The notes: generated from the letters alone by a model not told the origin. A stretch of DNA of 64,000 nucleotides from Kiritimatiellia bacterium (GCA_017450695.1 JAFSTA010000084.1:34474-98473), one strand, 5' to 3'. Positions 3,040 to 57,557 are shown, numbered from the stretch's first letter. Numbers and translations are program-made.

Positions 3040-3148
3040 CCCGTCGCCCGCACTTACGCGGGAATGTAAATGAAGGTAAGTTTGTCTCACGCAAGGACCC
3101 CAGAACGAAACAAGGCAACAATCGGGGAAGCGACACTCTTGTCGCTTC
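3040..3148 (+). repeat. Intergenic repeat family R2, copy a (gggaatgNaaatgaNggtaa...tttgtctcNcgcaa...caatcggggaagcgacactcttgtcgcttc, ends in 9-bp-stem hairpin)
   Basis: Near-identical ~100 bp segment recurs at 13785..13895. Contains the perfect hairpin GAAGCGACA-ctct-TGTCGCTTC and a cccgc..gcggg hairpin. Confidence 0.7.
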
Positions 3149-3540
3149 ATCCGGTTGGGTGGTTAGGTGTTGTGTCGTTCCCGCGCAAGCGCGGGCAGAG
3201 CGCATGCTTATGGGTTGGCGGGCAAGGAAATGCGGTCGCGAGGGAATGCGCCCCGATTCGGGCAACGAGGACGTTACCCCTCCCATTCGATGTGTACCCT
3301 GTGTTCTCCGCGCCCCTGCGTGAAACAAACTCGCCCGCATGTGCATTTCCATGCCGGTATGAGCGGATGGATGGACTTCGTTCTGTTTTCACGCCGAATG
3401 CAGTTTTGTCTTGCCCTACCCGTTTTTTTTCGCTATTGTCATCGCGTAAGATGTTTTGGGGGTGGATGCATTCGCCAGGGTCGGAGCAAGAGACAAGCTC
3501 CGGGCGGATCGTGTCGGAACCTCCTGATCGAGGAGTCAGA

Positions 3541-4989
3541 ATGCAACCTACAGTTTCTTTGGGAATGAATCGCCGGCAGTTTGTCGGCGCGATGTCGGCA
3601 ACGGCGGCTCTCGCCGGAATGCCCGGAATCCTCCGTGCGCAGGAAGCGCCGGCGGTTGATCCGAAAATCGTCGGAGCGAACAACCGTGTGCGTGTGGCGT
3701 GCGTCGGTTTCTCCGACCGCTTCCGCAGCTCGCTGCTCCCCTGCTTCCTCGGAAACGCCAAGGACCTTAACTTCGATCTCGTCGCCGTGGCGGACCTGTG
3801 GAAGAAGCGCCTGAATGAAGAAGCCATTCCGAAACTGAAGGAGAAGACAGGCCATGACATCGTCGGATACCGCAGTGATGTCGAGCTGTACGAAAAGGGC
3901 AAGGACATCGACGCCGTGATCATTTCAACGGCTGACTTCCAGCACGCGCAGCACGCCGCCCACGCGGTGAACGCGGGGAAAGACGCCTACTGCGAAAAAC
4001 CGCTCGCGGAAGACATGTACTCCGCGAATATGCTGAAGGACGCGGTGGATGCCAAGCGCAACGCGGGCTTCGCCCCCGGCGCCGTCCTCCAGATCGGCTC
4101 GCAACGCCGCAGCGGCAAATCCTATCAGGCTGCCAAGGAGTTTCTCAACTCCGGCGCGTTCGGCGACATCAGCTACGTTGACCTGCGCTGGAATGTCAAC
4201 CAGCCCGGCCGCTGGCGCCGTCCCGAGAAACTGATCCAGTCCCTCAAGAAGGAGGACATCGACTGGGATCTGTGGCTGCTCGACCGCGATCCGAAGACCT
4301 ACCCGTTCGATCCGCGCAAGTATCTGGAGTTCCGCCTCTTCTGGCCTTTCTCCTCCGGAACTCCCGGACAGTGGATGTGCCACCAGATCGACACCGTCGC
4401 CTGGTTCACCGGTTATGCCTACCCGACCAGCGCGGTCTCTTCCGGCGGTCTCTACCAGTGGGTCGATGGGCGTGTGAGCTACGACACCTTCACGACCGTC
4501 CTCGAATATGGTCAGAGCGGTGTCAAGGGGAAGGGCTTCCAATGCGTCTTCCAGAGCCACCAGCACAATTGCGGCGGCGGCTCGAACCCCAACCGTGAAT
4601 CGCCGATCGAGAAATACTTCGGCCCCAAAGGGTGCGTCGATATGGGACGCAAGATGGTCACGAACGAGGGCGTCGAAGGGAAGAAGTGGGAGGAGAAGCC
4701 GCTGCCTGCCCCGCAGGAAGCGGTCGTCACCAGCGCCAATACCGGCGCCGATAACCTGACCAACGCCCATATGCGTAACTGGATGGAGTGCGTCCGCGCC
4801 AGGAAGAACCCGAACGCCCCGATCGAGGCCGGGTACTCCCACGCGATCGCCCTCATCATGGCGAACGCTGCCGCCCGTACCGGATGCCGCGCGACTTTCG
4901 ATGAGTCGAAGCGCGAAGTAATCGCCGGCGGCAAGGTCTTCAAGGGGTACGAGTCCCGCAGCAAGGGCTGGTTCAGCTCCCTCTTCTAG
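3541..4989 (+). CDS. Gfo/Idh/MocA-family NAD(P)-dependent oxidoreductase, Tat-secreted
   Basis: Twin-arginine signal MNRRQFVGAMSATAALAGMPGILRAQEA. Rossmann N-terminus VRVACVGFS, Gfo/Idh/MocA-like core. GAGGAG RBS 8 nt upstream of the ATG at 3541. The 5' 470 nt of the listed ORF 3070.. is repeat sequence, not coding. Confidence 0.75.
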   Translation: MQPTVSLGMNRRQFVGAMSATAALAGMPGILRAQEAPAVDPKIVGANNRVRVACVGFSDRFRSSLLPCFLGNAKDLNFDLVAVADLWKKRLNEEAIPKLKEKTGHDIVGYRSDVELYEKGKDIDAVIISTADFQHAQHAAHAVNAGKDAYCEKPLAEDMYSANMLKDAVDAKRNAGFAPGAVLQIGSQRRSGKSYQAAKEFLNSGAFGDISYVDLRWNVNQPGRWRRPEKLIQSLKKEDIDWDLWLLDRDPKTYPFDPRKYLEFRLFWPFSSGTPGQWMCHQIDTVAWFTGYAYPTSAVSSGGLYQWVDGRVSYDTFTTVLEYGQSGVKGKGFQCVFQSHQHNCGGGSNPNRESPIEKYFGPKGCVDMGRKMVTNEGVEGKKWEEKPLPAPQEAVVTSANTGADNLTNAHMRNWMECVRARKNPNAPIEAGYSHAIALIMANAAARTGCRATFDESKREVIAGGKVFKGYESRSKGWFSSLF

Positions 4990-5018
4990 TCCAATTCCGA
5001 GACGTACGTCCCCTCCCT

Positions 5019-5048
5019 CCGGAAACGTCGGTGTTTCGACGTTTCCGG
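5019..5048 (+). terminator. Perfect 12-bp-stem hairpin (CCGGAAACGTCG-gtgttt-CGACGTTTCCGG) followed by a T-run; probable terminator of the oxidoreductase gene
   Basis: Inverted repeat read directly, 30 nt after the stop at 4989. cgtcgttttt follows downstream. Confidence 0.5.
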
Positions 5049-5094
5049 ATTTCCGCCGGGGCGTCGTTTTTCATTCACAAAACGGTTTCATACC

Positions 5095-5997
5095 ATGACG
5101 CGCAGAACATTTAAGACAACACTTGCCGCCGCCGGCATGACCGGCGCGATGCATCACACCCTCGCCGCCGAGGCGGCGAAACCGAAGTTCCTCTTCGGGG
5201 CTTGCCAGGGACTGGACAAGGCGGCGAGAATGAAGACCGCCGGGTTCGACTTCATCGAACTAGGCGTAGGCGGTACGCTCCGCCCCCGCGATTCGGACGA
5301 GGCCTTTAAGCCGCAGCTTGAGAAATTGCTGGCCAGTCCGCTGCCGATCCGTTCGTGCAACGGTTTCCTGCCCGGCGACCTCAAGCTGACCGGACCGAAT
5401 CCCCGTCAAGACGAGGCTCTCGCCTATGCGGAGAAGGCTTGCCGCCGCGCGGACCTGATCAACATGACCACGATCGTCTTTGGCAGCAGCGGCGCACGCA
5501 ACGCCCCCGAAGGTTTCGACATCGAAAAAGCGAAGGCGCAGTTCATCGACTTCTGCCGGAAGCTTGGCGACCGTATCGCGGATTGCAAGGTAACGGTGGT
5601 GCTGGAGCCGCTGAACAAGAAGGAGGCCAATTACCTCCGGACGGTTCTGGAGGGAGCGGAGATGGTAGATGTCATTAACAAACCCCGTATCCAGCTTCTC
5701 GGCGACTTCTACCACATGCGATGCGAGAAGGAGACCGCCGATTCATTCCGCAAGGCAGGCGCGAAGATTCGTCACTGCCATATCGCGGAGCTGAATGGTC
5801 GCGTCTGCCCCGGAACGCACGGCGAGGACTTCTCGGACTACTTCACCGCACTCCGTGAAATCGGCTATACCGGCGGCATCTCCTGCGAATGCGGGTGGCC
5901 ACAGAAGAAACAGAACGACGGGACAAAGACACCGCCCATTGAGGAGCTGTGGGCCAAAGCCCTCGAAACCATGCGGAAACAGGCGTTGGGCGCCTAA
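5095..5997 (+). CDS. Sugar phosphate isomerase/epimerase (xylose isomerase-like TIM barrel), probable Tat/Sec signal
   Basis: 300 aa. N-terminal MTRRTFKTTLAAAGMTGAMHHTLAAEAA. Composition and length fit the AP-endonuclease-2 / xylose-isomerase-like TIM barrel. Family assignment is from overall pattern, not strong motifs. Confidence 0.5.
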   Translation: MTRRTFKTTLAAAGMTGAMHHTLAAEAAKPKFLFGACQGLDKAARMKTAGFDFIELGVGGTLRPRDSDEAFKPQLEKLLASPLPIRSCNGFLPGDLKLTGPNPRQDEALAYAEKACRRADLINMTTIVFGSSGARNAPEGFDIEKAKAQFIDFCRKLGDRIADCKVTVVLEPLNKKEANYLRTVLEGAEMVDVINKPRIQLLGDFYHMRCEKETADSFRKAGAKIRHCHIAELNGRVCPGTHGEDFSDYFTALREIGYTGGISCECGWPQKKQNDGTKTPPIEELWAKALETMRKQALGA

Positions 5998-6004
5998 TGT
6001 AACC

Positions 6005-6032
6005 TGGTGGACGGGGCTTTCCCCGTCCACCA
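6005..6032 (+). terminator. Perfect hairpin TGGTGGACGGGG-cttt-CCCCGTCCACCA just after stop of 5095..5997
   Basis: 12-bp stem read directly. No strong T-tract, so it may be a stabiliser or a factor-dependent terminator. Confidence 0.4.
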
Positions 6033-6219
6033 AGGCACTACCCACTATCAGCCACCAGCTTGCCGATAAGTTCAAGGTTGGGTGGTTCGGTGGTTGGTTA
6101 GTTAGCTGGTACACTTGGAGGTGACAGTGTTCAGTTTGGACAACGAGTCTCGTTTTTCGGATCTGCTGCCCGCAGCAGATGCTTATGCGGCTCTGTTGCG
6201 GAATGATGTCACCTCTTCC

Positions 6220-7590
6220 TGCATGGAGCCGAATGCTCTGTTCCGTTCCGGTTTCGCCTGGACGGAACGGCACTTGCAGTGCCTCTGGTTCGACTCCCGC
6301 TACCGTCCTTCCTTCTTTCCCCAACCCGGCGGCGAAACCGTAGAAGTGCTGGATCCCGGGGAATGGAATCTGGAAGCGGGACCGGACTTCCTGGATGCCA
6401 CGCTACGAATCAATCCAGGCAATCGCCATCTTCGCGGAGACATTGAGGTACACGTGCGTCCTACGGACTGGGATTCGCATCGTCATGCGAACGATTCCCG
6501 GTACGAACGGGTCATCGCCCACGTCACCTGGTTTTCCGCCCCGCCGGCGCGCACCCTGCCGACACACGTTGTTCAGCTTCCACTGGCGGAACGGATGGCA
6601 TTCCGTCCGGATGTCTCACTAGACGACATCGACCTAAAGGCTTACCCGCATGCGATCCTGCCCGAAACGCCCCGTCCCTGCGAACCGCTTTTGCACGGAC
6701 GGATGGATGAGGCGGCTTACCTGCTCGCATCCGCCGGCCAGTATCGCCTTCGTACCAAAGCCGCGCGTATCGCGCACCGGCTACTCCAAATCGGCGACCG
6801 CGAGCAAGTCTTTTACGAAGAGGTCATGGCCGCGTTGGGATACAAGTACAACCAAGGCCCCTTCCGCGCCATCGCGAAACTCCTGCCGTTTTCGGAAATC
6901 CGTTCCCTCCCGAAGGAAACCCGGTACGCGCGTTTTTTGGGTTGCGGGAAATTGCTGCCGCAACCGGATATCTTGCCCGACGAAGAGGGCAAATCTTGGA
7001 TCCGTTCCCTCTGGGACCAATGGTTCCTAGAAAGTTGCGAAACGATTGCCGATGAAGTCCAGTGGCGCACCAGCAATCTCCGTCCGCAGAATACTCCCGT
7101 GCGGCGGCTCGCGGCAGGTGCCTGCCTTTTCACAGGAACCCCCACCCTGCTGGAGGCAATCGATTTCTTCCGGGACGAACAGGGGGAACGGTGGCAGTCG
7201 CTTGCGCTGGACACGATTGTCGAGCGGTGCGACTGGGAGTTCTTCCGTCACCGACTCGCCTTCTCTTCCCTGCCGAACAACGAACAAAATCACGCCCTGA
7301 TGGGCGCGGCACGGGCTGCCGCCATCGTCACCAATATCGTATTGCCACTCTCCGTGGCGGAAGGTTGGCTTCCGCCCCATGCGATCGATCACATTCCACC
7401 GGAAGACATCTCCGCCCCGATGAGACGTGTCGCCCTGTACCTGTTCGGACGCGACCACAACCCTGCGCTCTACGCCACGAACGGACTCTACCAGCAAGGT
7501 CTCCTCCAAATCTATCTGGACTTCTGCCTCACGGCAAAACCCGATTGTGACGGATGCCCCCTCGTCCAAGCCTTGTTCGACCGAATGTAG
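6220..7590 (+). CDS. DUF2851-like hypothetical protein (C-terminal CDGCP motif)
   Basis: The pattern GETVEVLDPGEWNLEAGPDFLDATLRI...GDIEVHVRPTDWDSHRHANDSRYERVIAHVTWF matches my recollection of the DUF2851 conserved core. ATG at 6220 puts the LQCLWF motif near the N-terminus. An upstream TTG at 6115 is an alternative start. Confidence 0.45.
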   Translation, partial: CMEPNALFRSGFAWTERHLQCLWFDSRYRPSFFPQPGGETVEVLDPGEWNLEAGPDFLDATLRINPGNRHLRGDIEVHVRPTDWDSHRHANDSRYERVIAHVTWFSAPPARTLPTHVVQLPLAERMAFRPDVSLDDIDLKAYPHAILPETPRPCEPLLHGRMDEAAYLLASAGQYRLRTKAARIAHRLLQIGDREQVFYEEVMAALGYKYNQGPFRAIAKLLPFSEIRSLPKETRYARFLGCGKLLPQPDILPDEEGKSWIRSLWDQWFLESCETIADEVQWRTSNLRPQNTPVRRLAAGACLFTGTPTLLEAIDFFRDEQGERWQSLALDTIVERCDWEFFRHRLAFSSLPNNEQNHALMGAARAAAIVTNIVLPLSVAEGWLPPHAIDHIPPEDISAPMRRVALYLFGRDHNPALYATNGLYQQGLLQIYLDFCLTAKPDCDGCPLVQALFDRM

Positions 7591-8182
7591 GTGGACAACC
7601 GGTAGATAGCTGACAGCCTTGAGCTTCTCGCTGTCACCGACAGCATGCCATACGGGAATGTTCAGGAAGGCAAGTTTTGTTTTGTCGCACGCGAAACCGC
7701 CGAGACGAAAAGAAAAAAGTGGCGGGTACTCCGTCGCGACCGCAATGCCTAACACGCTTGACCGACTGAACACGCCTTGCCAACTTATAAACGAGACCGT
7801 GTAAGCGGTTGGGAGTTCGAGGAAATGCCCCGTCCGCTTGCCAAGCAAGCAACTACGCAAAAAAACGGCGATTAAAGGGGGAAACCTTCAATCGCCGCCA
7901 GGGAGGACATATATTATTCAACAGCTATGCTTTTCGCATGAGCAGTCATTGGGGGAATGCTGCTCCAAGCTGCCGGTCCCGCAACCTTTCGGTTGCAAAA
8001 GACGGTGACATTTTAATCTTTCACGAGTTGTTTGTCAAGAGAGAAAAATTAAATTTTTGTAAGAAATCGATAGCAGGTGGAGGGATGGGACAGGAAACGC
8101 ATAAAGGATAAGTTATGTTTTGCCTCACAGGGTGGGACGCACCTGTCGCGTCCGCACTGCTTCACACGCGCAACCGGCCAAC

Positions 8183-8340
8183 TGATAGGCAAGGCAATCT
8201 TAGCAAAAGGACAACAACTTCAACAATGGAGAGACAACATACTTGTGGTCGTCGCGCAACCGTGCGACGTTTCTCATCCGGCTCGCGGTTGCCAGCCGTC
8301 CATTTTGAAGTTGTTCCGAAGTTGTCTGTGTTGTTTTCCA
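8183..8340 (+). repeat. Intergenic repeat family R1, copy a (~150 bp: ctgataggc...aacaac..tggtcgtcgcgcaaccgYgcgac...tcatYcggctcRcggttgcNagccgtcc...ttgttc)
   Basis: Direct repeat of 13578..13760. The two copies flank the CotH giant gene. Reverse-orientation copy at 56748..56845 and partial copies at 57075..57125 and 57405..57462. Confidence 0.75.
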
Positions 8341-8603
8341 ATTCCTTCCATGAATGGTTGGGCGGCCAGGTGGTTGGGGTAAATGGTTAATGGTTAAATA
8401 ATCAAATCGTCGTTGACGCGACTTGAAATCGGCACACCGGATGAACAAAGGTGGACACTGGCGTAAAAGCTACAAGCTGACACCTATAAGCTCCAGGTTG
8501 GGTGGTTAGCCCCAAGCCACACGCAGGTGAATACGGGCGGAGCATTTCCCCTTGCAAGATGTCTCACGAACCGCTATACTTTTTCGTGTTGGGAGTTGTG
8601 GAT

Positions 8604-11600
8604 ATGAAAACACATTCTTCTTTTTTGCCTTTTTTCGTTTGGTCTGTCGTGGTATTTCCGTTTCTCGCATCCGCGACAATCGTCATCAATGAGGTACAGT
8701 CGTCGAACGACTCAACCTGCCGCGATGAATACGGCATGTCTTCGGATTGGGTCGAACTGTACAATACCGGCACTACGAACGTGGATTTGAGCGGATGGGG
8801 TGTAAGCGACAAGACCTCCAAGCCATTCAAATGGATCTTCCCGTCCGGCGCGACAATCGCGGCGCAAAGCCATCTGCGACTCTTCGCATCGGGCAGGGAT
8901 GTCGTGGAGTCGCAGGAGGTGGAGGGAATCGATCCTTCGACCTTTTCGTCCAACCTTGTCCTGTGGCTGAGCGCGGACGACTTCTCGTCCACTGCGAACG
9001 GTACCAGCGTGACAAACTGGTATGACCGGAGCGGCTACGGGAACCACGCCACCCAATGTCTCGCTCGTGCGCCGTCCGTTCAGCTGCAGGCGGTGAACGG
9101 TCATGCCGCGCTCTCCTTCAAGCGTTCTTCCAAGCAGCACTTTTTGTTGCCGAAGGCTTTTCATGGTCTCTCTTCCCTCTCGAACAGCACGATCATGGTG
9201 GCATGCAAGTGGAACGGGGCTGTGACTTCTGGCATTTTCGGTCAGTGGACTTCGGGCACCTCGACGCAGAATGCCCATTTCGAAATCCAATCCGGCGGCA
9301 CCTTGCGGTGGCGGGTTGCGAACAGCGACCTGAAGGTCAACGCAGCCGTCACCTCCGGCACGTGGATGAACCTGGCCGCGATCACCGACTGCGATCGCGA
9401 GACTCCGATGCTCTCGCTCGTAAAGGATGGGCAGCTGTTGCAGAGTCTCGAAAAGTCGATTGGCCAGCAGAACTTTTCGATTGCCGACCTGATTTACCTG
9501 GGTGACTCTTGCGAGGCGTCGGATTCCTCGTCCGGACGGTATTTTGACGGTTCGATCGCGGAGGTCGTCATTCTTAACCGCGCGTTGACCGCAACTGAGT
9601 GGGAACGGCTCTCGCAATACTTCATCGACAAGTACGGCGCGGATATCCGCACGAACTACCATCTCAGTTTCAAGCTGGGGGCGGAAGGCGAGACATTGAC
9701 CGTCACACAACCGGACGGCACGCTCTCCGACCAGGTGACATTCGGGGCGATTCCCTGCGACGCCTCCTACGGGCGTTCCCCCAGCGGCGGCGAGGATTTC
9801 GCTTGGTTCGCCGAACCAACTCCGGGGGCCGCCAATTCGGAAACCGCCTACGACGCGCCGCTGGCCCCCGTCCAGTTCTCCGTCGAGCGCGGATTGTACG
9901 AGGAACCGATTTCGCTGACGCTTTCCCATCCCGATCCAGAAGCCGCAATCTTCTATACCCTGGACTACTCCGAGCCGTCCGTCTCAAACGGAACCCGATA
10001 CGCGGGCGAGACGATCGCCATCAGCCACACAACTGTCGTGAGAGCGTATGCAGACAAGCCCGGCACCCTGCCGTATCGCTCCATCCAGACGCATTCGTAC
10101 ATTTTCCTCTCGGATGTTCCTCAGCAGACAGACATACCGGCGGGATGTCCGTCGGTCTGGACATCAGGCGGCAGCACACCCGCTTCTTACGGAATCAGCA
10201 CACAGGTTGTCGCAACCGCCGAGGACGTGATCAATCTGACGAACGCCTTGCGGCAGCTCCCGATTCTCTCGCTCTCCCTCGCGGCGGAGAAAGTGTTCGG
10301 TTCTTCCGCAGGTGTCTATTCTCACGCGGCGGACAGTTCGCTGGAAGAGGCCGTTTCCGCCGAATGGCTCACCAACGGTGTCGGGTTCGTACAGACAGAC
10401 GCCGGACTGAAGGCGCAAGGCGCCGCCAGCCGGAATTTTTCCAGTACGCCGAAAAAACCGTTGCGCCTCTGCTTCCGGGGACGTTACGGAGCGGGAAAAC
10501 TCAAGACGCCCGTTCTCCAGGATATCGGGTATTCCTGCGACGAGTTCAACACGCTGGTCCTTCGTGCCGAGTACAACAACTCGTGGGTCCACCGCGAAGC
10601 CCCGCAACGCCTCCGAGGTTCGAACGTCCGCGACCAGTGGATGCGGGACACACAAGGCAAGATGAGCGGATACCAGTCCCACGGCAATCACGTCCACCTG
10701 TTCATCAACGGTCGTTACTGGGGAATTTACAATGTCGCCGAACGAATCGACGCCTCTCTTGCAGCCACCCTTTTCGGAGGGGATAAAGAAGAGTATGACG
10801 GCCTTGCCTATGACGGCGACACAGGCTCGATTAAAGCGCGCGATGGCGATACCACATCGTGGAACGCCCTGATGACGCTTCTGTCTGCCGACTTGACACT
10901 GCGCGAGAACTATCAGGCTGTCGCGCAGCGGGTTGACCTACCCGCATTCGCCGACTACATGCTGCTGAACTTCTTTGGTGGCAACCAAGACTGGCCGCAC
11001 AACAACTTCGCGATGGTCTGTTCCCGTTTGGAGGGGGGCAAGTTCTACTTCTGCTGTTGGGATGTCGAACGGACGCTGGAGGGTGTTTCCGACAACCGCC
11101 TCTCCGCCTCCTTCAGTATCGGCCCGAAAAAGTTGCATGACCGTTTGCTGACCTCTCCCGAATACAAGATGCTTTTTGCGGACCGCGCACACAAGCACCT
11201 GTTCAATGGCGGCGCCCTTACCGTCGAATCCATGATTCCCCGATACCGTGCGCTTGCGGACAAGTTGGAACCGGCTATATTCGCCGAAGCCGCCCGCTGG
11301 GGAAGCTATCGGCTTGAAAACGGATCCGCCTCGCAGGGGTATGGCCTGGAGGAATGGATCGCCGAACGTGACCGTGTCCTCAACACATACCTGCCGCAGC
11401 GTCCCGCCCAATTCATCACGCAACTCCAAACCGCCGGGCTTTATCCCACAGTCGAAGCGCCGGAGATTTCGGAAAGCGCGAACGGTTTCCAGAAACAGGT
11501 CACCATTTCAATTCCCGCCGGAACGCAAGTCTATTACACACTGGACGGAACCGATCCCCGCGTGGCTTTCTCCGGCGGCACCTCCGCAACCGCCTTGGCT

Positions 11601-13478: not shown

Positions 13479-13531
13479 CAGCGGATGGATGATCCCCGTC
13501 TTCAGCCGAGTAGCAGGTAACAGAACAGAAT

Positions 13532-13553
13532 GAAGCGGCAGAAGTACCGCTTC
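13532..13553 (+). terminator. Hairpin GAAGCGG-cagaagta-CCGCTTC 54 nt after the CotH gene stop
   Basis: Same stem family (GAAGCGNCA/TGNCGCTTC) as hairpins in repeat families R2 and at 56855..56880. No T-tract. Confidence 0.35.
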
Positions 13554-13577
13554 ACCGAACGTCTCACTTAAAACTCG

Positions 13578-13760
13578 TAGCTGATAGGCGTGTTATCTTT
13601 TGCTTGGAGACAACCGTAACAACGAATCAACAACAAACTGGTGGTCGTCGCGCAACCGCGCGACGGGTATCTATCATTCGGCTCACGGTTGCGAGCCGTC
13701 CCGATTCAAGGTTGTTCTCGATGTTGTTTCTCGATGTTGTTCCTGTTGTTTCCTTTCTAC
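13578..13760 (+). repeat. Intergenic repeat family R1, copy b
   Basis: Aligns with 8183..8340 over ~150 bp with scattered substitutions. Confidence 0.75.
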
Positions 13761-13784
13761 CTTAGCTGTTGGCTTGTTGCGGGT

Positions 13785-13895
13785 AGCTTGTTACCCCGCG
13801 TTGTGCGCGGGAATGAAAATGAGGGTAAATTTGTCTCGCGCAAAGGGAAACAAGTCTCCCAATCGGGGAAGCGACACTCTTGTCGCTTCTACCTA
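13785..13895 (+). repeat. Intergenic repeat family R2, copy b
   Basis: Aligns with 3040..3148, including the terminal gaagcgacactcttgtcgcttc hairpin. Confidence 0.7.
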
Positions 13896-14079
13896 GCAAC
13901 AGAGCAGTGCGAAGCGGCAGGAGTGCCGCTTCCCCGAATGTCTCGCGCCGGACTCGGAACTTATAGGCAGGCTGGTTGGGCGGTTTACGCATCTCAGTCG
14001 CGACACCCTCTCCCATACTAAAGATCACCGTCAAAAAAATATCTTGCACTCGCCTCGAAAATCCCCTATTGTAAACTCA

Positions 14080-15270
14080 ATGAAAATCTTATGGATAGAT
14101 GTTGTTTCGGAGATGGGCGGGGCTCAGTACAGCCTGTTGGATGCATGCCGCAAGCTGGTTGCGTATCCTGATTTGGAAATCGCCGTTGCGCTTCCTCACG
14201 GACCTCTTTTCTCTCATCTGTCGGATGCAGGAATCACCTGTTTCCCGATTGAACCGATCCGTGCCCGGCGTAGAGGAAAGGGATTGTTCTCGACCCTTGC
14301 CAAGTTTTTCCGCGCACCCTCCGCGATCCACAAGATCATTCGCGCTTTCCGTCCCGATATCCTGCACGCGAACGCCCTTCCTTCCCTGTTGACGATTCGG
14401 AAGGAACGGAAGATACCGATTTTCTGGCATGTCCGTGACCTGCGTCAGCCCTACCCTCTCTTCCGCGAAGGCGCCTATCTGGCTACACGTATCATCGCCG
14501 CATCGCAATCAATCGAGGAGCACCTCGTCGAAAGCGTCTCCTCCAAAACTTTCTCCCGCATCAAACTCGTACGCAACGGAATCGACACGGACCGTTACGT
14601 CCCGCGCGATAATCGGGCGGCGCGTGACCGTTTCGGACTGCCGCAGGATGTTCCGCTGGTTGGGATGGTCGCGCACTTCATTCCGTGGAAACGTCATGAC
14701 CTCTTTCTAGAAACGGCCGCGCTCGTTCATGCACGGATTCCAGAAGCCCATTTTGTCCTGGCGGGACAAGATCTCTTCCATGAGAACGCCGCATACATCA
14801 ACACACTCCACAAGCAGGCAGAAACGCTCGGCATCGCAGATCGCGTGCATTTCATCGGGGATTGCCAAGCAACGGAAACACTCTTCCCGGCTTTCACCGT
14901 CCTGCTCCACCCGCCGGTCGGGGAACCCTTCGGGCGCGTGATCTGTGAAGCTCTCGCCTGCCAGGTTCCTGTTGTCGCGGCGGCATCCGCCGGACCGGAA
15001 GAAATCATCGCGGGAACAAACTCCCAAGCGGGAAACACCGGCCATCCGGGAATCCTGTGCGAACGCAAGACACCGGAGGATTTTGCCGACGCCGTCTGTA
15101 AACTGATCGAGGAGCCGCAGACGCGAACGCAAATGGGGACAATGGGGCGGCAAGTGGTCTGCGAGCGGTACAGCATTTCCCGTGTTGCGGAGGAATTGCA
15201 TAAACTCTACCAGACGACCCTGCATGAAATCGCAGAGGATCTCCGTCGCGCCACCAACAGCGACTCCTAG
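14080..15270 (+). CDS. Glycosyltransferase family 4 (GT4, RfaB-like)
   Basis: MKILWIDVVSEMGGAQYSLLD N-terminus (GT4 N-domain). C-terminal EPFGRVICEALACQVPVVAAASAGPEEII (the E-x7-E donor-binding region typical of GT4). Confidence 0.8.
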   Translation: MKILWIDVVSEMGGAQYSLLDACRKLVAYPDLEIAVALPHGPLFSHLSDAGITCFPIEPIRARRRGKGLFSTLAKFFRAPSAIHKIIRAFRPDILHANALPSLLTIRKERKIPIFWHVRDLRQPYPLFREGAYLATRIIAASQSIEEHLVESVSSKTFSRIKLVRNGIDTDRYVPRDNRAARDRFGLPQDVPLVGMVAHFIPWKRHDLFLETAALVHARIPEAHFVLAGQDLFHENAAYINTLHKQAETLGIADRVHFIGDCQATETLFPAFTVLLHPPVGEPFGRVICEALACQVPVVAAASAGPEEIIAGTNSQAGNTGHPGILCERKTPEDFADAVCKLIEEPQTRTQMGTMGRQVVCERYSISRVAEELHKLYQTTLHEIAEDLRRATNSDS

Positions 15271-17345: not shown

Positions 17346-17538
17346 TCCGCGGCTTCTCGCCCCGGAAAACTCAATCAGTGGCACTCGCAATTCCCCTGTT
17401 GATACTCTTAGCCGAAAAGATCACAAAGGCTGAATGGCTTTTGGCTTTTAGCCCCCGCTCACGCCATGCGCGAGTGATTCGATTCATGCTGTACGCACGC
17501 CGGAGGTTGAAGTTTTAGCCGAGGTTGAAATGGCATTG

Positions 17539-17589
17539 TGATTTGTGACATTGTTGGCATTTGTGAACATTTGAGATTTGTGAACAATG
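17539..17589 (+). promoter_or_regulatory. Three direct repeats of ATTTGTGA(A)CA spaced ~17 bp, ~170 bp upstream of the FGE-paralog cluster
   Basis: gtgATTTGTGACAttgttggcATTTGTGAACAtttgagATTTGTGAACAatg read directly. The TGTGA half-site resembles CRP/FNR-type operators. Confidence 0.3.
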
Positions 17590-17756
17590 AAGTTCTAGAC
17601 GAGCTGGTAGCGGGTAGCTGTCGGATGAGAGCTACCGACCACAGCAGCTAGACTTCCCGCCGCTATGCGTTTGACAAGAGCGGCGCAAAAATGATATGGT
17701 AGATACGTCCATTTGATCAACTGTATCTTCGCTTTGAGGCGAAAGGAACATACCGT

Positions 17757-21655: not shown

Positions 21656-21689
21656 GAAAGCAGCAGACCGCAGTTATCCCATCACGCAA

Positions 21690-22010
21690 TGCCCCCGAGA
21701 TTGGGAGGGGCAACGTCCTCGTTGCCCGAATTGGGAGGGTCGCGCCCCGTCGCGACCGCACTGCCCTTGCCTTCGCTGCGGGGAGTCTCGGAGTTGGGGA
21801 GGGTCGCGCCCCGTCGCGACCGCACTGCCCTTGCTTTCGCTGCGGGGAGTCTCGGAGTTTGGGAGGGGCGCGCCCCGTCGCGACCGCACTGCCCTTGCTT
21901 TCGCTGCGGGGAGTCTCGGAGTTTGGGAGGGTCGCGCCCCGTCGCGACCGCTACTGCCCTTGCTTTCGCTGCGGGGAGTCTCGGAGTTTGGGGCGCGCTC
22001 CGTCGCGACC
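21690..22010. repeat. Tandem repeat: ~4.5 copies of a 61-62 bp unit (tgggagggtcgcgccccgtcgcgaccgcactgcccttgctttcgctgcggggagtctcggagtt) with a leading GGGGCAACG..CGTTGCCC hairpin
   Basis: Units read directly and differ by 1-3 SNPs. Each contains the palindrome GTCGCG-cccc-gt-CGCGAC. Related copies (family R3) at 56917..57050. The ORFs listed on both strands here are repeat artefacts. Confidence 0.85.
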
Positions 22011-22102
22011 GCATTGCTTAACCACCTAACTACCACCTAACCAGCCCCCCCTCCCTCAACACCTCTCTTGCGGTCTGTGGTAAAATTCAGTATAATGCCG
22101 CC

Positions 22103-22588
22103 ATGTTTTTCCGAAACAAGAAACGACTACCCCACTCCGTGGAGAAACGGCTGTTCCTCGTTTTGGTTTGCGCGTGCAGTTGGCTTGTACCCGGATGCCA
22201 TTCGCGTCCGACGCCGCCACCGAACCGCAAGCCCATCACGATGACCGTGGTTGTCACGGGATATTGCAGTTGCGGCGAGTGCTGTAACTGGCACTATTCG
22301 TGGTGGGGATTCGGTCCGGCGACAATTTCCAAAGGACCGAACGCGGGAAAACGGAAGAAGGTCGGGCTGACCGCCAGCGGAGTCCAAGCGAGTCCTGGAA
22401 CGATCGCCGCCGACACTTCCGTCATCCCGATGGGATCGATTCTGTACGTCCCCGGATACGGATACGGGAAAGTGCAGGATCGGGGTGGTTCTGTGATCGG
22501 AAAGCACATTGACCTTTGGTTTCCCTCCCATGACCAGGCGAAAAAATGGGGGAAGAAAACATTGACGGTGAAAATCTGGAAACCGTGA
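22103..22588 (+). CDS. 3D-domain (MltA-like) lipoprotein
   Basis: Lipobox-like LVLVCACSWLVPGC. 3D-domain signature VVVTGYCSCGECC...ADTSVIPMGSILYVPGYGYGKVQDRGGSVIGKHIDLWF. Confidence 0.75.
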   Translation: MFFRNKKRLPHSVEKRLFLVLVCACSWLVPGCHSRPTPPPNRKPITMTVVVTGYCSCGECCNWHYSWWGFGPATISKGPNAGKRKKVGLTASGVQASPGTIAADTSVIPMGSILYVPGYGYGKVQDRGGSVIGKHIDLWFPSHDQAKKWGKKTLTVKIWKP

Positions 22589-30704: not shown

Positions 30705-31122
30705 AGGCTATCCTTTCCCAGCAACAATTCACCTTACGGGAGTAAATTATAGCAAACCCAAGCCCATCCTGCAATTTGTTGTTTTCGGGGCAAGAGGAAG
30801 TGGGCGCATCTGCGTTTTTCACCGTGATCCATGTAGATACCTGCGATACCGAACGCGGAGATTGAACCTCACGCAAAGTCCGCAAAGTTCGCAAAGGGAA
30901 GGAAGGCGGCCACTTCGCGTACTTGGCGAACTTGGCGTGAGACCATGACATGAAAACTTCTGGGTTTAAACACGGCAGACCTTTGTTGAATTATACAGAT
31001 GCGCCCAGAGGAAGTTCTGAGTTGCCGCGTCCCCGTTCGGTTGTACGGCATGGTATGTCGCGCCACAGGACGAACCGCGAAAAATAAGACGGAAAAATAC
31101 GCCGCCAACCGACCGCTACCAG

Positions 31123-42101: not shown

Positions 42102-42119
42102 TGGCTCGCGACCGAAAGC

Positions 42120-43529: not shown

Positions 43530-43536
43530 AACTCCA

Positions 43537-45291: not shown

Positions 45292-45372
45292 TCCCTGCCT
45301 TGAGCGGCAAGCGCAAGAATTTAGCTTACTCTTTTATTCCTTCGGTGTCAATTGCATTCGCCCGGCGGTGGG

Positions 45373-47871: not shown

Positions 47872-47883
47872 GGAGAACTGGCA

Positions 47884-50830: not shown

Positions 50831-51002
50831 TTCACGAAATCCACTTCCCCGTTGATGATCTAACTCTGTGATAATCTCGAAACCGCAGATTACAGAGTGC
50901 TTGGCGCTTCGCGCCAGCTGAAAAGCTGAGAAGCGAAAGGAGGGCAATAGGATTACCTCGCGTAAAGGCGTCGAGTCGCCCAATCGAGAAGAGAGAACGC
51001 GC

Positions 51003-51050
51003 GGATTAGGTCGATTTAAAGCCTCCGAAGGAGGCGATTTAACCATTTCA
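51003..51050. repeat. Intergenic repeat family R4 (gatttaaaGCCTCCgaaGGAGGCgattNaaccatttca), copy a
   Basis: Second copy at 57234..57282 with the same GCCTCC-gaa-GGAGGC hairpin. Confidence 0.7.
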
Positions 51051-51259
51051 CCTAAGTTCCTCAGTTGGACACTTTGAAATGAATCATGCTGCTTTGGATT
51101 TTTCAGACTTTCACCATTTGGATGAATCGTTTTTCTGTGTGTGCGGGGGGGCGAAAAGCCCTGTTTACGGTACTTTCTCTGTGTACTCTGCGCACTCAGC
51201 GGCTCTGCGTGAGAACCCAAACGAGGAATCGAGGTTTAATCCGTTCTTGTGCCAAGTCC

Positions 51260-53347: not shown

Positions 53348-53454
53348 GGGTCACCTCCTCAGATTGGCGTTGCCGAAAGTATGGGGAAAAGAAAAAGGGA
53401 GACACGGATTTTGAAACAAAATTCGTGTCCCCCACAAAACAGGAACGAGAGGAA

Positions 53455-53664: not shown

Positions 53665-53837
53665 CCCCTTTCAGTCACAAAGTGAAAAGTTAGTATAGAG
53701 AAAATACAGCCTGGAGTCAACCCGAATTTTTTTGAATTTTCGCACGGATTCCCATGCTTTCTCCTTTGATTTCGTGATTGTCTATGCTAAAATAACCCTG
53801 TTGTTCGGTAGTGTATCCATCAGCAAAGGAGGTTGCC

Positions 53838-54311
53838 ATGCCCGAGACCGCCAACAAGATTTTATTCTGTACAGATTTTTCGCAAAATGCGCTTCAGTCG
53901 TTTTCCTATGCGATTCGCGCCACTAAGGAGATTCCCGACGCGCAGCTGGTTCTCTTCCACACGATGCCGGAACCAGACGCGCAATTCTGGAAAGGGTACA
54001 TCTTGGATTCGGATGACGCCATGACGGAGATGAAGCAAAAGATCCACGAGAAGATCGATGCGGAGTATCGCCCGCTCCTGCCACCAGACTGCCCGATGGA
54101 AGTCGTGCTGACCACCGGCGACGCACCGGAGGAGATTCTGCATTACGCGAACCGGGAGAATGTCCGGATGATCGTACTCGGCAGACAAGGGAGCGGCATG
54201 ATCTCCCAATGGCTGATGGGGAATGTCACAGCCCGCGTCGTCCGCAAGGCGAACTGCCCCGTCCTCGTCGTCCCCTTCTCCTTCATCGAAAAACAGAAGC
54301 AGGCCAAATGA
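53838..54311 (+). CDS. Universal stress protein (UspA family)
   Basis: ILFCTDFSQNA...LVLFHTM and C-terminal MIVLGRQGSGMISQWLMGNVTARVVRKANCPVLVVP (Usp ATP-binding tail). AGGAGG RBS upstream. Stop overlaps the next start (ATGA). Confidence 0.75.
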   Translation: MPETANKILFCTDFSQNALQSFSYAIRATKEIPDAQLVLFHTMPEPDAQFWKGYILDSDDAMTEMKQKIHEKIDAEYRPLLPPDCPMEVVLTTGDAPEEILHYANRENVRMIVLGRQGSGMISQWLMGNVTARVVRKANCPVLVVPFSFIEKQKQAK

Positions 54312-55501
54312 TCGGAATCTCGAAGCTTTATCTAGGTACCGTCGAAGTATCCGACCCGTTGCGGTACGGACGTGCGTCCGGCAAACTTCCGAGTCACCTG
54401 CTCCAGTTCTCGAAGGACAAGAAACCTGTCGTCGTGTGGAATGTCACTTCGCGCTGCAACCTGAAATGCGAACACTGTTACGCCGCAGTCCCGAAAGTCC
54501 AGCCGGAGTTGACCGCCGAACAGGCGTTTGCGGTTTTGGACGATCTCGCCGGGTTCGGAGTTCCTGTTGTGTTGTTCTCCGGTGGCGAGCCATTCACCCG
54601 TCCCGATATCCTCGACCTCGCCCGTTATGCGGCCTCGAAGAAGTTACGCGTCGTGTTCTCGACCAACGGGACGCTGATCACGCGCGAAGTCGCGGAGGAA
54701 ATCCAGAAGATCGGCGTTTCGTATGTCGGCATCAGCATCGACGGCGGGCAAGCGGTTCACGACCGTTTCCGTCGCATGGAAGGAGCCTTCCAAGCCGCGC
54801 TCAACGGGATCCGGAACTGCCGCGACGCAGGAATCAAGATCGGTCTCCGCGTCACGATCACTCGTGACAACGTGCAGGAAATCCCGGCGGTGTTCGACCT
54901 CATGGAAACGGAGAAGGTGCCGCGCCTCTGCCTCTATCACCTTGTCTATTGCGGACGCGGCGCGGAAATCGCCGACCATGACCTCACGCCTGAAGAACGT
55001 CGCGCCACGGTGGATCTCATCATCGACCGGACAAAACGCCTGCACGACCTCGGATTCCAGACCGAAGTGTTGACAGTCGATAACCATTGCGACGGTCCCT
55101 ATCTCTATCTGCGGATGTTGCGCGAGGCAAACCCGCGCGCCGGCGATGTATTGTCGCTCCTCCAGATGAACGGCGGCAACAGCACGGGACTCGGGATCGG
55201 CTGCATCAGCTGGGACGGAACCGTCTATCCCGACCAGTTCTGGCGCAACAAACCGCAGGGCAACGTGCTGGAGAAACCATTCAGTGAAATCTGGGGAAAA
55301 CCGCCGGAGGATTCCCTCCTCTGGCAGTTGCGCCACCGGAAGGAACGGATCACCGGACGTTGCGCGAACTGCCGCTTCCATTCCGTCTGCAACGGCAATT
55401 TCCGCGCACGTGCGGAAGCCGCCACGGGTGACATCTGGGCAAGTGACCCGACATGCTATCTAACGGATGAAGAAATCCGAGAACAAGCAACAACCATGTA
55501 A
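54308..55501 (+). CDS. Radical SAM / SPASM-domain enzyme of the NirJ/AhbC/AhbD (heme d1 / alternative heme biosynthesis) family
   Basis: CX3CX2C cluster VVWNVTSRCNLKCEHCY, FSGGEP, STNGTLI, SPASM-like GIGCISWDGTVYPDQFW and CANCRFHSVCNGNFRARAEA, C-terminal DPTCYL. This set matches my recollection of NirJ/Ahb-type proteins rather than anSME. Confidence 0.6.
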   Translation: MIGISKLYLGTVEVSDPLRYGRASGKLPSHLLQFSKDKKPVVVWNVTSRCNLKCEHCYAAVPKVQPELTAEQAFAVLDDLAGFGVPVVLFSGGEPFTRPDILDLARYAASKKLRVVFSTNGTLITREVAEEIQKIGVSYVGISIDGGQAVHDRFRRMEGAFQAALNGIRNCRDAGIKIGLRVTITRDNVQEIPAVFDLMETEKVPRLCLYHLVYCGRGAEIADHDLTPEERRATVDLIIDRTKRLHDLGFQTEVLTVDNHCDGPYLYLRMLREANPRAGDVLSLLQMNGGNSTGLGIGCISWDGTVYPDQFWRNKPQGNVLEKPFSEIWGKPPEDSLLWQLRHRKERITGRCANCRFHSVCNGNFRARAEAATGDIWASDPTCYLTDEEIREQATTM

Positions 55502-55515
55502 CAGGAGACAACACG

Positions 55516-56598
55516 ATGACACAAGACAGAATCCGTGGATCCTTGATCGGCGGGGCGATCGGGGACGCACTCGGATATTCCGTGGAATTCGACTCACTCG
55601 GTTCCATCCGGTCCAAGTACGGCGAACGCGGCATCACGCGTCTGGATACGACATACTCCCTGCATTCGGGCGCGAACGGCAAGGCGGTGATTTCCGATGA
55701 CACGCAGATGACTCTCTTCACCGCGTGCGGTCTGCTCAACGCCAAACGACAGGACCTCCCGTTTCTGGAAGCGATCAAGCAAGCCTATCTGGAATGGTTC
55801 GAAACGCAAACAAGCCGGAATACAAGCCATCAACCGGAATGCTGGATCCGCGATGTGCCCGAACTAAACCACCACCGCGCCCCCGGTTTGACCTGTATGT
55901 CCGCCCTCCGCGAAATCGCACAAGGTGCCCCGCACGGCAACAACGACAGTAAGGGGTGCGGCGGCGTCATGCGTATTGCCCCCATTCCTCTTTTCGCCGT
56001 TCCAGAACGCCGCATGGACATTTTGGAGTCAGACCGCTTGGCCGGAGATGCCGCCGCCCTCACGCACCGCCATCCCCTTGGGTACCTCTCGGCGGCGATG
56101 GCCGCGCATGTCATCTATCTGCTCGTCCAGGAATCCTCCCCGACACGCCAGACGCTGGAGGACGCGATCGCCGATGCGAATCTGGCAATGCGTACTCTCT
56201 ACCCGAAACAAGCCCGTTACGTGGAAACACTGGAAGGCCTCTCCAAGCAGGCGGTCGCTCTCGCGGCAAACGCCGCCCCCGACATCGAGAACATCAACGT
56301 GCTGGGCGAAGGCTGGGTCGGCGAGGAAACGCTGGTAATCGCACTGTATTGCTCACTCCGTCATTTTGACAGTTTCGAGAATGCGATGATCGCCTCCGTG
56401 AATCATGGAGGAGACAGCGACAGCACCGGCGCCGTTGCGGGGAACATCCTGGGCGCCGCACTCGGATACCAAGCCATCCCCTCCTTCTACACGGATGATG
56501 TCGAGTTGCACGATCTGATTCTTCAGATGGCCGACGACCTCTATACCGGCACAATCTCCGGCAACGGAAAAACGGGGAGTGGTGTAGCCAGCAGCTAG
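55516..56598 (+). CDS. ADP-ribosylglycohydrolase family protein (DraG/ARH-like)
   Basis: N-terminal RIRGSLIGGAIGDALGYSVEF (ADP-ribosylglycohydrolase signature). Later GDSDSTGAVAGNILGAALG (metal-binding motif). 14 nt after the radical SAM gene. Confidence 0.8.
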   Translation: MTQDRIRGSLIGGAIGDALGYSVEFDSLGSIRSKYGERGITRLDTTYSLHSGANGKAVISDDTQMTLFTACGLLNAKRQDLPFLEAIKQAYLEWFETQTSRNTSHQPECWIRDVPELNHHRAPGLTCMSALREIAQGAPHGNNDSKGCGGVMRIAPIPLFAVPERRMDILESDRLAGDAAALTHRHPLGYLSAAMAAHVIYLLVQESSPTRQTLEDAIADANLAMRTLYPKQARYVETLEGLSKQAVALAANAAPDIENINVLGEGWVGEETLVIALYCSLRHFDSFENAMIASVNHGGDSDSTGAVAGNILGAALGYQAIPSFYTDDVELHDLILQMADDLYTGTISGNGKTGSGVASS

Positions 56599-56747
56599 GA
56601 TACGCACGATCCACCGTACGAAGCGGCACCGGGACTCGTCTCATATCCCGCATGTCGCTTGTCCTTTGCCTCACACGGAGGCGCGAAGAATGGGAGGGGC
56701 AACGTCCTCGTTCCCCGAATTGGGATGGTCACGTTCGCCTCTCCTCC

Positions 56748-56845
56748 TTGAATCGGGACGGTTCGCAACCGCGAACCGGATAAGAACCGTCGCGCGGTTA
56801 CGCGACAACCGCCAGCGTGTTGTTGTCGTTGTTGTCCTTGCCTAT
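56748..56845 (-). repeat. Intergenic repeat family R1, reverse-orientation copy c, embedded in a ~700 bp repeat-dense region (56660..57470) that also holds R3 and R4 units and gaagcggcactcctgccgcttc hairpins
   Basis: cttgaatcgggacggttcgcaaccgcgaaccg...accgtcgcgcggttacgcgacaacc...cttgcctatcag is the reverse complement of the R1 consensus. Confidence 0.7.
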
Positions 56846-56916
56846 CAGTTCCGAGCAAACCGTTCGGGGAAGCGGCACTCCTGCCGCTTCACGGAGGTGT
56901 AATTGTCTTTTGTCTC

Positions 56917-57050
56917 ACGCGGAAAATGGGGAGGGTCCCGCCCCGTCGCGACCGCGTAGGCAGAGCGGATATTGCTTTCGCTATGGGGAGTCTCGGAGTT
57001 TTGGAGATAGGGTGTCGCGAAGAACGGGAGGGTCGCGCCCCGTCGCGACC
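56917..57050. repeat. Repeat family R3 (gggagggtcNcgccccgtcgcgaccgc ... ctttcgctNNggggagtctcggagtt), two units
   Basis: Shares the 27 bp core and the gggagtctcggagtt tail with the tandem array at 21690..22010. Confidence 0.7.
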
Positions 57051-57233
57051 GCGTAGGCAGGGCAGGAAGGATTAGGAAACAACAGGGACAACATCGAGAA
57101 CAACTTCAATCGAGACGGCTCGCAACATTCCAAATTCCGAGTTCTGGGTGATCCGTTCGGGAAAGCGGGGAAAGTTAAATCGCTTCGCTTTGAAATGGTT
57201 ACATGGTTAAATGGACGAGCCGCCGAAAACGGG

Positions 57234-57282
57234 GCGGATCAGGCTGATTTAAAGCCTCCGAAGGAGGCGATTGAACCATTTC
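57234..57282. repeat. Intergenic repeat family R4, copy b
   Basis: ctgatttaaagcctccgaaggaggcgattgaaccatttca, matches 51003..51050. Confidence 0.7.
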
Positions 57283-57557
57283 ATCTTTTAACCATCCAAA
57301 GCCGCGCCGCGTCAGGCTTTCGTGGTCGCGCCCAGCGCCCTATTCCGTGTGTTCCGTATATTCCGTGGTTTTGTCCAACAGAGGAATCCAGGTTCAAGGA
57401 AGGGATGGGGAAACAACGGGACAACATCAAGAACAACTTGAATCGGGACGGCACCAGCATAACTCGCTTCCCTACGCATCTCGTTCAAGATTGACGCGGC
57501 TGGCGAAAACCGATAGACTAAAGTTCGCATTTTGAAACTGTACCTGAACCAGAAAGG

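Follow-up and report, generated by a model that had tools for sequence, protein, structure and literature searches.

The intergenic regions of a 64,000-nucleotide stretch of DNA from a Kiritimatiellia bacterium (GCA_017450695.1 JAFSTA010000084.1:34474-98473; the whole stretch is called the window below) contain mosaics of short hairpin repeats. With a probability of about 0.75, these are the Kiritimatiellae version of repetitive extragenic palindromes (REPs) and bacterial interspersed mosaic elements (BIMEs), spread by a RayT-type transposase. Two REP superfamilies, class 1 with a GGGG head and class 2 with a GGGAGGG head, dominate the mosaics and are widespread in the clade. A short G/T-rich motif, GGTTGGGTGGTT, had been noticed at eight or more intergenic sites in an earlier, sequence-only reading of the window. 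It is probably a fast-changing simple-sequence module of short period (4 or 8 nt) within the REP mosaics.

The window has a G+C content of about 57% and very probably comes from ruminant-gut Kiritimatiellae, with BIME-like REP mosaics in intergenic regions downstream of genes. The closest GlnRS sequences belong to metagenome-assembled genomes (MAGs) annotated as Kiritimatiellae, and the nearest genome is RGIG6996 from sheep rumen (GCA_017544725.1; 97% amino-acid identity). Contigs of the same strain group, at least 99.9% identical, were found in three ENA metagenome assemblies. Exact-protein look-ups gave matches for GlnRS and QueA and none for three proteins of the window. A second close relative is L119 (L numbers designate loci fetched for comparison), the flanking genes of which are 80-85% identical to those of the window at the nucleotide level, and L113 covers 9.8 kb continuing the same contig past the window end. 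BLAST comparison of the intergenic DNA with itself revealed repeats in 3001-3541, 7591-8603, 13479-14079, 21656-22102, 50831-51259, 56599-57557 and 59507-59712; the region 62284-62696 contains repeat families J and K, recognised through matches to L113 and L116. According to this comparison and a repeat finder, all the spacers holding repeats lie between co-directional or convergent genes. No match of the self-comparison fell in a divergent spacer of the window.

Two classes of palindromic repeats

Class 1 repeats are 22-nt palindromes with a 9-bp stem and a loop of 4 nt, extended by GGGG on a single side. They follow the pattern GGGG + GAAGCG-NNN-loop4-NNN-CGCTTC, with stems of the type GAAGCGNCA/TGNCGCTTC. 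The recurrence of such stems had been pointed out from the sequence alone, and they are present at 3124-3148, 13532-13556, 13865-13889, 13911-13935 and 56866-56890. The window thus has five class 1 copies, in addition to at least nine copies of class 2; every copy is intergenic. The first (GGGGAAGCGACACTCTTGTCGCTTC, plus strand) displays the GGGG head, the 9-bp stem and a CTCT loop, and the second is a variant on the minus strand (GGTGAAGCGGTACTTCTGCCGCTTC as read on that strand). The third and fourth form an inverted doublet (13865-13935), in which an A-type copy on the plus strand and a G-type copy on the minus strand are separated by a 21-nt spacer. The fifth is part of a dense mosaic at 56690-57126.

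Class 1 was scanned for with a degenerate pattern that left the variable stem positions free, using one genome per species. The scan returned at least 77 stretches from at least 19 assemblies, nearly all of them ruminant-gut MAGs of Kiritimatiellae, Lentisphaerae or Verrucomicrobia. The fetched DNA contains 165 copies, among which compensatory variation is seen at all three inner pairs of the stem. Pair 1 is G-C in 108 copies, A-T in 50 and non-Watson-Crick in 7; pair 3 is A-T in 133, G-C in 31 and mismatched in a single copy. The one-sided GGGG head is found in 146 of the 165. Copies are frequently arranged head-to-head with a spacer of 10-45 nt, an A-type and a G-type stem commonly sharing one doublet. 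These inverted doublets (the REPIN arrangement, that is, REP doublets forming hairpins) occur in many related loci as well as at 13865-13935.

Class 2 repeats consist of a GGGAGGG head followed by a hairpin of 6-8 bp with a variable stem sequence. A perfect hairpin of at least 6 bp follows GGGAGGG in 97 of 188 cases (52%), compared with 1-9% for control heptamers, and the stems show compensatory variants (GGTCGCG, GGACGCGC, GGCCGCG, GGTCGCAA and GGGCAACG). As an exact 27-mer, GGGAGGGTCGCGCCCCGTCGCGACCGC was found in 28 JGI metagenome contigs of 47-65% G+C, none of which is syntenic with the window. An E variant of class 2 on the minus strand at 3256-3288 (GGGAGGGG-TAACGTCCTCGTTGCCC) is 94-97% identical to the copies at 21702 and 56688. 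The plus-strand E variant at 21700-21727 (GGGAGGGGCAACGTCCTCGTTGCCC) has its hairpin also at the orthologous site of RGIG6996. A degenerate class 2 tail (CTCCGTCGCGACCGCAATGCCTAAC), assigned to family D9, lies at 7720-7753 on the plus strand. The dense mosaic at 56690-57126 combines an E variant (56690-56716), a reversed copy of the composite element described below (56746-56840), a box CCTATCAG (56841-56848), the class 1 copy, two class 2 copies (56929-56955 and 57026-57052) and an arm of family G (57064-57126).

The heads of the REPs thus read (T)TCGGGG and GGGAGGG; the terminal tetranucleotides GTAG and CGTC are absent. The BIME architecture is present, with oppositely oriented REPs and recurrent linkers, whereas the palindromic unit (PU) and linker sequences of Escherichia coli are absent.

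Link to a RayT-type transposase in related loci

All open reading frames (ORFs) of the fetched loci were probed with two Y1 transposase sequences, of IS200 and E. coli RayT; these served as probes only, and the single match was then verified with Pfam. It is an ORF at L029:2383-3009 encoding a Y1_Tnp protein (PF01797, E 1.8e-9) of 208 aa with NHVH and YI..N motifs, and class 1 REP doublets lie on both sides of the gene. A database search gave 1,183 relatives, several of which bear the JGI label 'REP element-mobilizing transposase RayT'. In three relatives with 54-69% identity (L109, L110 and L111/L112), GGGGAAGCG-type REPs are found on both sides. In all, five related loci contain a Y1 gene (IS200-like, RayT-type) with class 1 REPs on both sides, and the REP stems differ from one RayT lineage to another (L109-L112 loci). 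L109 derives from the metagenome sample that also yielded the contigs L079 and L113 of the window strain, and its REPs are 96-97% identical to the window copies over 30-31 nt, including the CCCCGATTG tail.

As judged from sequence, the class 1 REPs are likely to be the cognate repeats of a RayT-type Y1 (HUH) transposase. The covarying stems, the inverted doublets and the RayT genes flanked by REPs in five related loci bear out the suggestion of the sequence-only reading that the repeats resemble REP/BIME or miniature inverted-repeat transposable (MITE-like) elements. By the mechanism known for this family, RayT would act on single-stranded DNA, where it would recognise the hairpin together with the unpaired G-rich foot, and would spread copies, also in this genome. 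REPs would accumulate downstream of genes, where insertions are tolerated, and form mosaics with accessory modules; families A, C/G composite, F, J and K and the TTGCCTATCAG box would be such modules assembled around REPs.

REPs, REPINs, RAYTs and BIMEs are well described. The repeats of the window resemble the REP/REPIN-RAYT systems of E. coli, Pseudomonas fluorescens and Stenotrophomonas in being 22-27-nt palindromes with a one-sided, unpaired, conserved foot, in their dispersed and probably numerous intergenic copies, inverted doublets, compensatory stem changes and location downstream of genes, and in the Y1/HUH transposase gene with repeats on both sides (REPtron) seen in relatives. They differ by the foot, which is GGGG or GGGAGGG instead of GTAG, by their host (Kiritimatiellae from ruminant gut, in the Planctomycetes-Verrucomicrobia-Chlamydiae (PVC) superphylum), by the sharing of one REP sequence among many species-level MAGs of 47-65% G+C, and in that no RayT was seen in the window. 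As in enterobacterial BIMEs and the Neisseria mosaics (dRS3/Correia), REP types alternate with short non-palindromic linkers and vary between related genomes, but the sequences are unrelated and the linkers are here short-period G/T arrays and the TTGCCTATCAG box.

Two REP superfamilies, tagged with GTAG and CGTC, have been described, and GTAG REPs occur in the PVC bacterium Opitutus terrae (Di Nocera et al. 2013, PMC3733652); the architecture, the dimer organisation and the occurrence in the PVC superphylum are shared. As neither tag is present, GGGG and GGGAGGG would count as further tag classes. A broad survey of RayT-like families exists (PMC6006769), and full-text literature searches yielded no description of REP/RayT systems in Kiritimatiellae. 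These abundant, uncultured ruminant-gut bacteria would gain a defined REP/RayT system with two new head types across many species. The biology is that expected from REPs of other phyla, and the surprise is low; the value lies in annotation, since REP hairpins give rise to spurious ORFs and interrupt assemblies, and can be used to tell strains apart.

A comparison with the in-frame Rickettsia palindromic elements (RPEs) is relevant to some class 1 copies in related MAGs, which appear to lie inside ORFs (L003 about 7400-7470, L016 about 1040-1110, L072 about 950-1060 and about 5470-5570, and L050/L064), whereas the window copies are all intergenic. Some of the apparently ORF-internal copies are in signal-peptide-like N-termini (e.g. 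MKVVFLAMVIFGEAALLPLL), and the coding context of one is conserved across species. A MITE-like element with terminal inverted repeats (ACCGGTCACTCA.CTGCATCC...) surrounds a class 1 doublet in L041, L044, L045, L052, L053, L062 and L075, which represent several related species; none was seen in the window. A REP-bearing module of about 100 nt is common to L039 (1650-4150) and L031 (1880-4100), which belong to two species and differ in the cargo that the module flanks. By eye, from sequence motifs, the cargo consists of an AAA ATPase and an RloB-like protein in one species and a Fic-domain protein in the other. The glycosyltransferase/O-antigen-like setting of L039 and L031 suggests a variable island bounded by repeats.

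The GGTT motif and its arrays

The motif is more frequent than base composition predicts. With up to two mismatches, the 15-mer GGTTGGGTGGTTMGG has 5 matches against 0.34 expected, a number reached in none of 100 shuffles; allowing three mismatches raises the count to 15, where 3.55 would be expected, and again none of 100 shuffles reached it. The 8-mers GGTGGTTA and GTTAGGTG each have five occurrences in the intergenic DNA (8.8 kb) and none in the coding DNA (55 kb). Beyond the window, the following 9.8 kb contain at least three further copies of the motif, two of them preceded by a TTGCC(T/G)AT(C/A)AG(Y)TCAA box. G/T-rich tracts in general show no enrichment (107 observed, 103-153 in local shuffles); only periodic GGTT-type arrays stand out. 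Among the eight sites first proposed, five are close to the 15-mer, but three are looser GGTT-rich arrays (8353-8400, 13974-13985 and 22018-22045), and two had been placed 10-15 nt off (8496-8510 instead of 8485-8500, and 62528-62553 instead of 62518-62532).

Site 1 (GGTTGGGTGGTTAGGTG, 3153-3169, plus strand) lies 4 nt after the class 1 REP at 3124-3148, about 245 nt upstream of a putative -35 hexamer (3411-3416) and 375-390 nt upstream of the ATG at 3542. A long ORF (3070-4989) spans this site, which is nevertheless intergenic because the true start is ATG 3542, preceded by GAGGAG and followed by a twin-arginine signal. Site 2 (6058-6106, plus strand) consists of a box GCTTGCCGATAAGTTCAA and a GGTT array GGTTGGGTGGTTCGGTGGTTGGTTAGTTAGC (6076-6106) that ends 10 nt before the Shine-Dalgarno sequence and 20 nt before the GTG start at 6127, a start backed by a 487-aa homologue (P0241). 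Site 3 (8483-8510, plus strand) combines the box CCTATAAGCTCCA with GGTTGGGTGGTTAGC (motif 8496-8510), 41 nt upstream of the -35 hexamer of a promoter at 8552-8580 and outside the block conserved in L119, which starts at 8545. In site 4 (13960-13985, plus strand), a box CTTATAGG and a linker precede GGTTGGGCGGTT (motif 13974-13985), 58 nt upstream of a putative -35 hexamer at 14044. Site 5 (8353-8400, plus strand) is a loose GGTT/ATGGTTAA array that is absent from the orthologous region of L119.

The other three sites are on the minus strand. The array of site 6 (TTAACCACCTAACTACCACCTAACCAGC, 22018-22045) has three mismatches and lies 22 nt upstream of the promoter TTGCGG-17-TATAAT (22068-22096). 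Site 7 (CCGTACCACCTAACCACCA, 59623-59641) is located between convergent genes and is followed by two 37-nt hairpin repeats (59647-59720). Site 8 (62528-62553) is upstream of sodA, on the sodA sense strand, at the end of a family J hairpin element of about 90 nt (62554-62640, minus strand) in the queA-sodA spacer.

A longer context had been thought to be shared by three plus-strand sites. This box, (TTGCC)GATAAGTTCAA or CCTATAAGCTCCA, is clear at 6058-6075 and 8483-8495, but loose at 13960-13973. It recurs beyond the window, precedes class 1 and class 2 REPs too, and is therefore a general junction module. Arrays of the same style, with a period of 4 or 8 nt, are found in related species with GGTTAGTT, GTGGTTCG, CCACTAAC and GTTAAGCT units, typically between a REP cluster and the next promoter; analogous arrays adjoin REP clusters in L019, L014 and L116. 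The absence of exact GGTTGGGYGGTT matches in about 640 kb of other-species loci had suggested a species-specific motif, a view that was revised after consideration of looser arrays and closer relatives.

The interpretation of the motif is decided by the comparison of orthologous spacers. The spacer between the genes for a formylglycine-generating enzyme (FGE)-sulfatase and a 3D-domain protein measures 208 nt in RGIG6996 (L116) and 447 nt in the window. The REP E hairpin, the C/A array of period 8 and the promoter TTGCGG-17-TATAAT with the start region are kept in RGIG6996. The C/A array differs from that of the window in length and sequence, and the site at 22018 has been rebuilt. An extra G/T array (GGTAGCTGGGTGGTTAGGTAGTTGGGTAGTTAGGTGGTTGG) is present on the other side of the REP, and the two arrays of RGIG6996 can pair around it (DNA fold of -33.3 kcal/mol, z -3.6). 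In the L119 spacer upstream of the DUF2851 gene, the GGTT array directly follows the upstream stop codon and is not by the Shine-Dalgarno sequence as in the window. The next L119 spacer has 507 nt compared with 1014 nt in the window, and only a 199-nt block resembling a small RNA and the promoter of the giant gene, from 8545 onward, can be aligned. This L119 spacer lacks the motif sites 8353-8400 and 8496-8510, as well as the composite element and the REP-like modules.

These spacers bear directly on the other proposal of the sequence-only reading, that GGTTGGGTGG is a promoter or an alternative-sigma-factor element for the downstream genes. The motif GGTTGGGTGGTT is never found in coding DNA, and six of the eight window sites precede a gene and have their G/T strand in the sense orientation, which speaks for such a role. 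However, the sites are located anywhere from 18 to about 390 nt before the start codon (about 20 for site 2, about 95 for sites 3 and 4, and 375-390 for site 1), with site 6 in inverted orientation and site 7 in a spacer of convergent genes. Downstream of the motif there are sigma-70-like hexamers, at 8552-8580 and, by eye, at 3411-3439, 14044-14072 and 22068-22096. The block conserved in L119 begins at the -35 hexamer and excludes the motif, with two sites absent and the site at 6076 displaced, while in RGIG6996 the array at 22018 was rebuilt and TTGCGG-17-TATAAT was kept. As orientation and distance vary and relatives keep promoters without the arrays, a promoter or sigma-factor role is unsupported and appears extremely unlikely. 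The GGTT motif is unfit as a promoter model, and a false lead is thereby removed.

Regarding the promoters themselves, the ATGs are found 7 and 6 nt past the putative -10 hexamers TATTGT and TATAAT (by eye; 14067-14082 and 22091-22105), suggesting that the GT4 glycosyltransferase and 3D-domain genes have leaderless mRNAs. The second of these promoters is conserved in RGIG6996. By eye, -35 hexamers in this organism tend to begin with TTGC.

A different role for the G/T arrays would be that of functional protein-binding or boundary modules by the REP clusters, insulating promoters or organising the nucleoid. The BIMEs of E. coli, with their IHF-binding linker, offer a comparison. Arrays of the same style (GGTTAGGT, GTGGTTCG, CCTAACAC and GTTAAGCT units) stand beside REP clusters in several species, a conserved TTGCCTATCAG box is often in front of them, and in close relatives they persist in the same two spacers despite sequence turnover. 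Yet the position, length and orientation of the arrays are not fixed, L119 has neither site 3 nor site 5, the arrays have no known binding protein, and generic G/T tracts lack enrichment. It is unlikely that the arrays (GGTTGGGTGGTT here; GTGGTTCG, GTTAAGCT and CCACTAAC in relatives) and the TTGCCTATCAG box constitute a functional boundary element, be it clade-wide. If they did, the arrays would be kept at the promoter-proximal edge of REP clusters and would not be passive simple sequence; a dedicated DNA- or RNA-binding protein, or arms pairing around the REPs, might shield promoters from read-through or from REP hairpins.

The motif also resembles the thrombin-binding aptamer GGTTGGTGTGGTTGG, and might act, in single-stranded DNA or in RNA, as a two-tetrad G-quadruplex (G4). 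The pattern GG-N1-3-GG-N1-3-GG-N1-3-GG is matched by seven of the eight sites, the fourth G run being missing in site 3. Intergenic DNA has 18 such patterns, three-fold more than shuffled sequences (6.2 +/- 2.5), the density in coding DNA being half, and calculation with G4 energies in ViennaRNA places a quadruplex in the minimum-free-energy structure of three of the eight sites. Two-tetrad G4s are only marginally stable, however, the GTTAAGCT and CCACTAAC units of related species are unable to form them, and the strand orientation is not uniform; this function is considered very unlikely.

Several other candidates were rejected. The motif fits the GTTRRRY of integron attC sites, but there is no integrase, the arrays lack attC symmetry, and the flanking genes are housekeeping genes with their own promoters. 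A skewed octamer of the Chi/KOPS type was ruled out by the absence of the motif from coding DNA. A Rho utilization (rut) site on the C/A strand was ruled out as a general explanation, most sites having G/T on the sense strand. The -24/-12 spacing of sigma-54 promoters does not fit.

The preferred explanation remains that the GGTTGGGTGGTT arrays belong to the REP mosaics as simple sequence. Beside or around REP clusters they would expand, contract and relocate quickly, and no sequence-specific function would be attached to them. Some observations weigh against the interpretation of the arrays and of the repeats as a whole. The persistence of G/T arrays in the same two spacers of relatives could reflect some selected role, and in about 8 of 10 placements it is the G/T strand that faces the gene downstream; protein binding, a boundary function or a two-tetrad G-quadruplex are possible roles. 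No transposase, integrase or RayT gene was found in the 64-kb window, and the linkage to RayT therefore rests on relatives and on the same-sample contig. The heads GGGG and GGGAGGG are not the GTAG and CGTC tags of the described superfamilies (PMC3733652). Finally, a comparison with relatives had been suggested to learn whether copies are insertion polymorphisms. Modules are present or absent at orthologous sites, and family K is found at non-orthologous sites, but no insertion or deletion of a single REP was seen among near-identical strains, the 64-nt tandem array described below excepted.

Other modules and features of the window

A tandem array at 21731-22013 (plus strand) contains about 4.4 copies of a 64-nt unit, each with GGGAGGGTCGCGCCCCGTCGCGACCGC. 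Contigs that are at least 99.9% identical (L078, the window and L080) differ in the number of units, which is 3, 4 or 5. The only other differences among these near-identical strains are two single-nucleotide polymorphisms, at 56731 and 57097, both in repeat-dense intergenic DNA. Contig L079 ends within the array, which is therefore a point where assemblies break and, with its variable copy number, a marker of strains. RGIG6996 lacks the array at the orthologous site.

The composite element at 8209-8345 (plus strand) is probably the repeat termed R2 in the sequence-only reading. Its two arms, one rich in ACAAC and one in GTTGT, pair with each other and enclose two inner hairpins, CGTCGCGC-AACC-GTGCGACG and GGCTCGC-GGTT-GCCAGCC. 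Further copies are found at 13606-13757 and, truncated and reversed, at 56746-56840, with fragments of the right arm at 57064-57126 and 57397-57452. A family of structured small-RNA genes (8209-8345 and 13606-13757), instead of mobile DNA, would account for the stable RNA folds (z -4.1 and -4.2) and for a compensatory change from C-G to T-A in an inner hairpin between copies. Against this, copies occur in both orientations, one is truncated by other repeats (56746-56840), and arm fragments are isolated (57064 and 57397); neither a promoter nor a terminator was found for the element, it has no Rfam match, and the copy at 8209-8345 is missing from the orthologous spacer of L119. Being truncated, inverted and fragmented, the composite therefore fits mobile DNA better than a small-RNA gene, an origin that is highly improbable. 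Pairing arms are present, and no target-site duplications were identified for the element.

Family A modules (GGGAATG.AAATGA.GGTAA.TTTGTCTC.CGCAA) are located at 3057-3094 (plus strand) and 13806-13843, with a related sequence at 7655-7700. The family F module at 51001-51053 (plus strand), with a GCCTCC-GAA-GGAGGC hairpin and a TTTAACCAT tail, has a second copy at 57234-57286. No copy of families A, C/G, E or F turned up in the loci sampled from more distant species. Beyond the window, family J elements of about 95-100 nt have an internal inverted repeat and form five tandem-like copies at L113 6925-7480; these lie about 2.4-2.9 kb past the window end and, by eye, adjoin tRNA-like sequence. 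Short repeat families at 3291-3326, 51180-51225, 30867-30942 and 17533-17590 comprise TCTCCGCG..CTGCGTGAGAA-type boxes, an inverted CGCAAAG/CTTGGCG repeat and ATTTGTGAACA tandem units. The last three regions match loci of other species (L023, L075 and L026/L047).

The genes of the window encode a SNF2 helicase, a GFO/IDH/MocA oxidoreductase, a 1,624-aa CotH/PATR protein, three FGE-sulfatase paralogues, GlnRS, PGK, a type III restriction-modification pair, a HemC/HemD/methylase fusion, SodA and QueA. No tRNA was found in the window, and Rfam gave no match, either at gathering thresholds for the window as a whole or at E<=1 for 7500-8700.

A candidate small RNA of about 145 nt is located on the minus strand at 7857-8038. 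It has a putative promoter TTGACA-17-TAAAAT (8038-8010) with 11 of 12 matches and a predicted intrinsic terminator (7899-7864) followed by a T run; no Rfam match was obtained for it even at E<=1. The predicted fold (-61.5 kcal/mol, z -5.6) leaves a UCCUCCC sequence unpaired between domains. The block is 90.5% identical to L119 without gaps, compared with 80-85% for the flanking genes. None of the 48 pairs is broken in L119, and all eight substitutions at paired positions keep the pair, one of them being compensatory.

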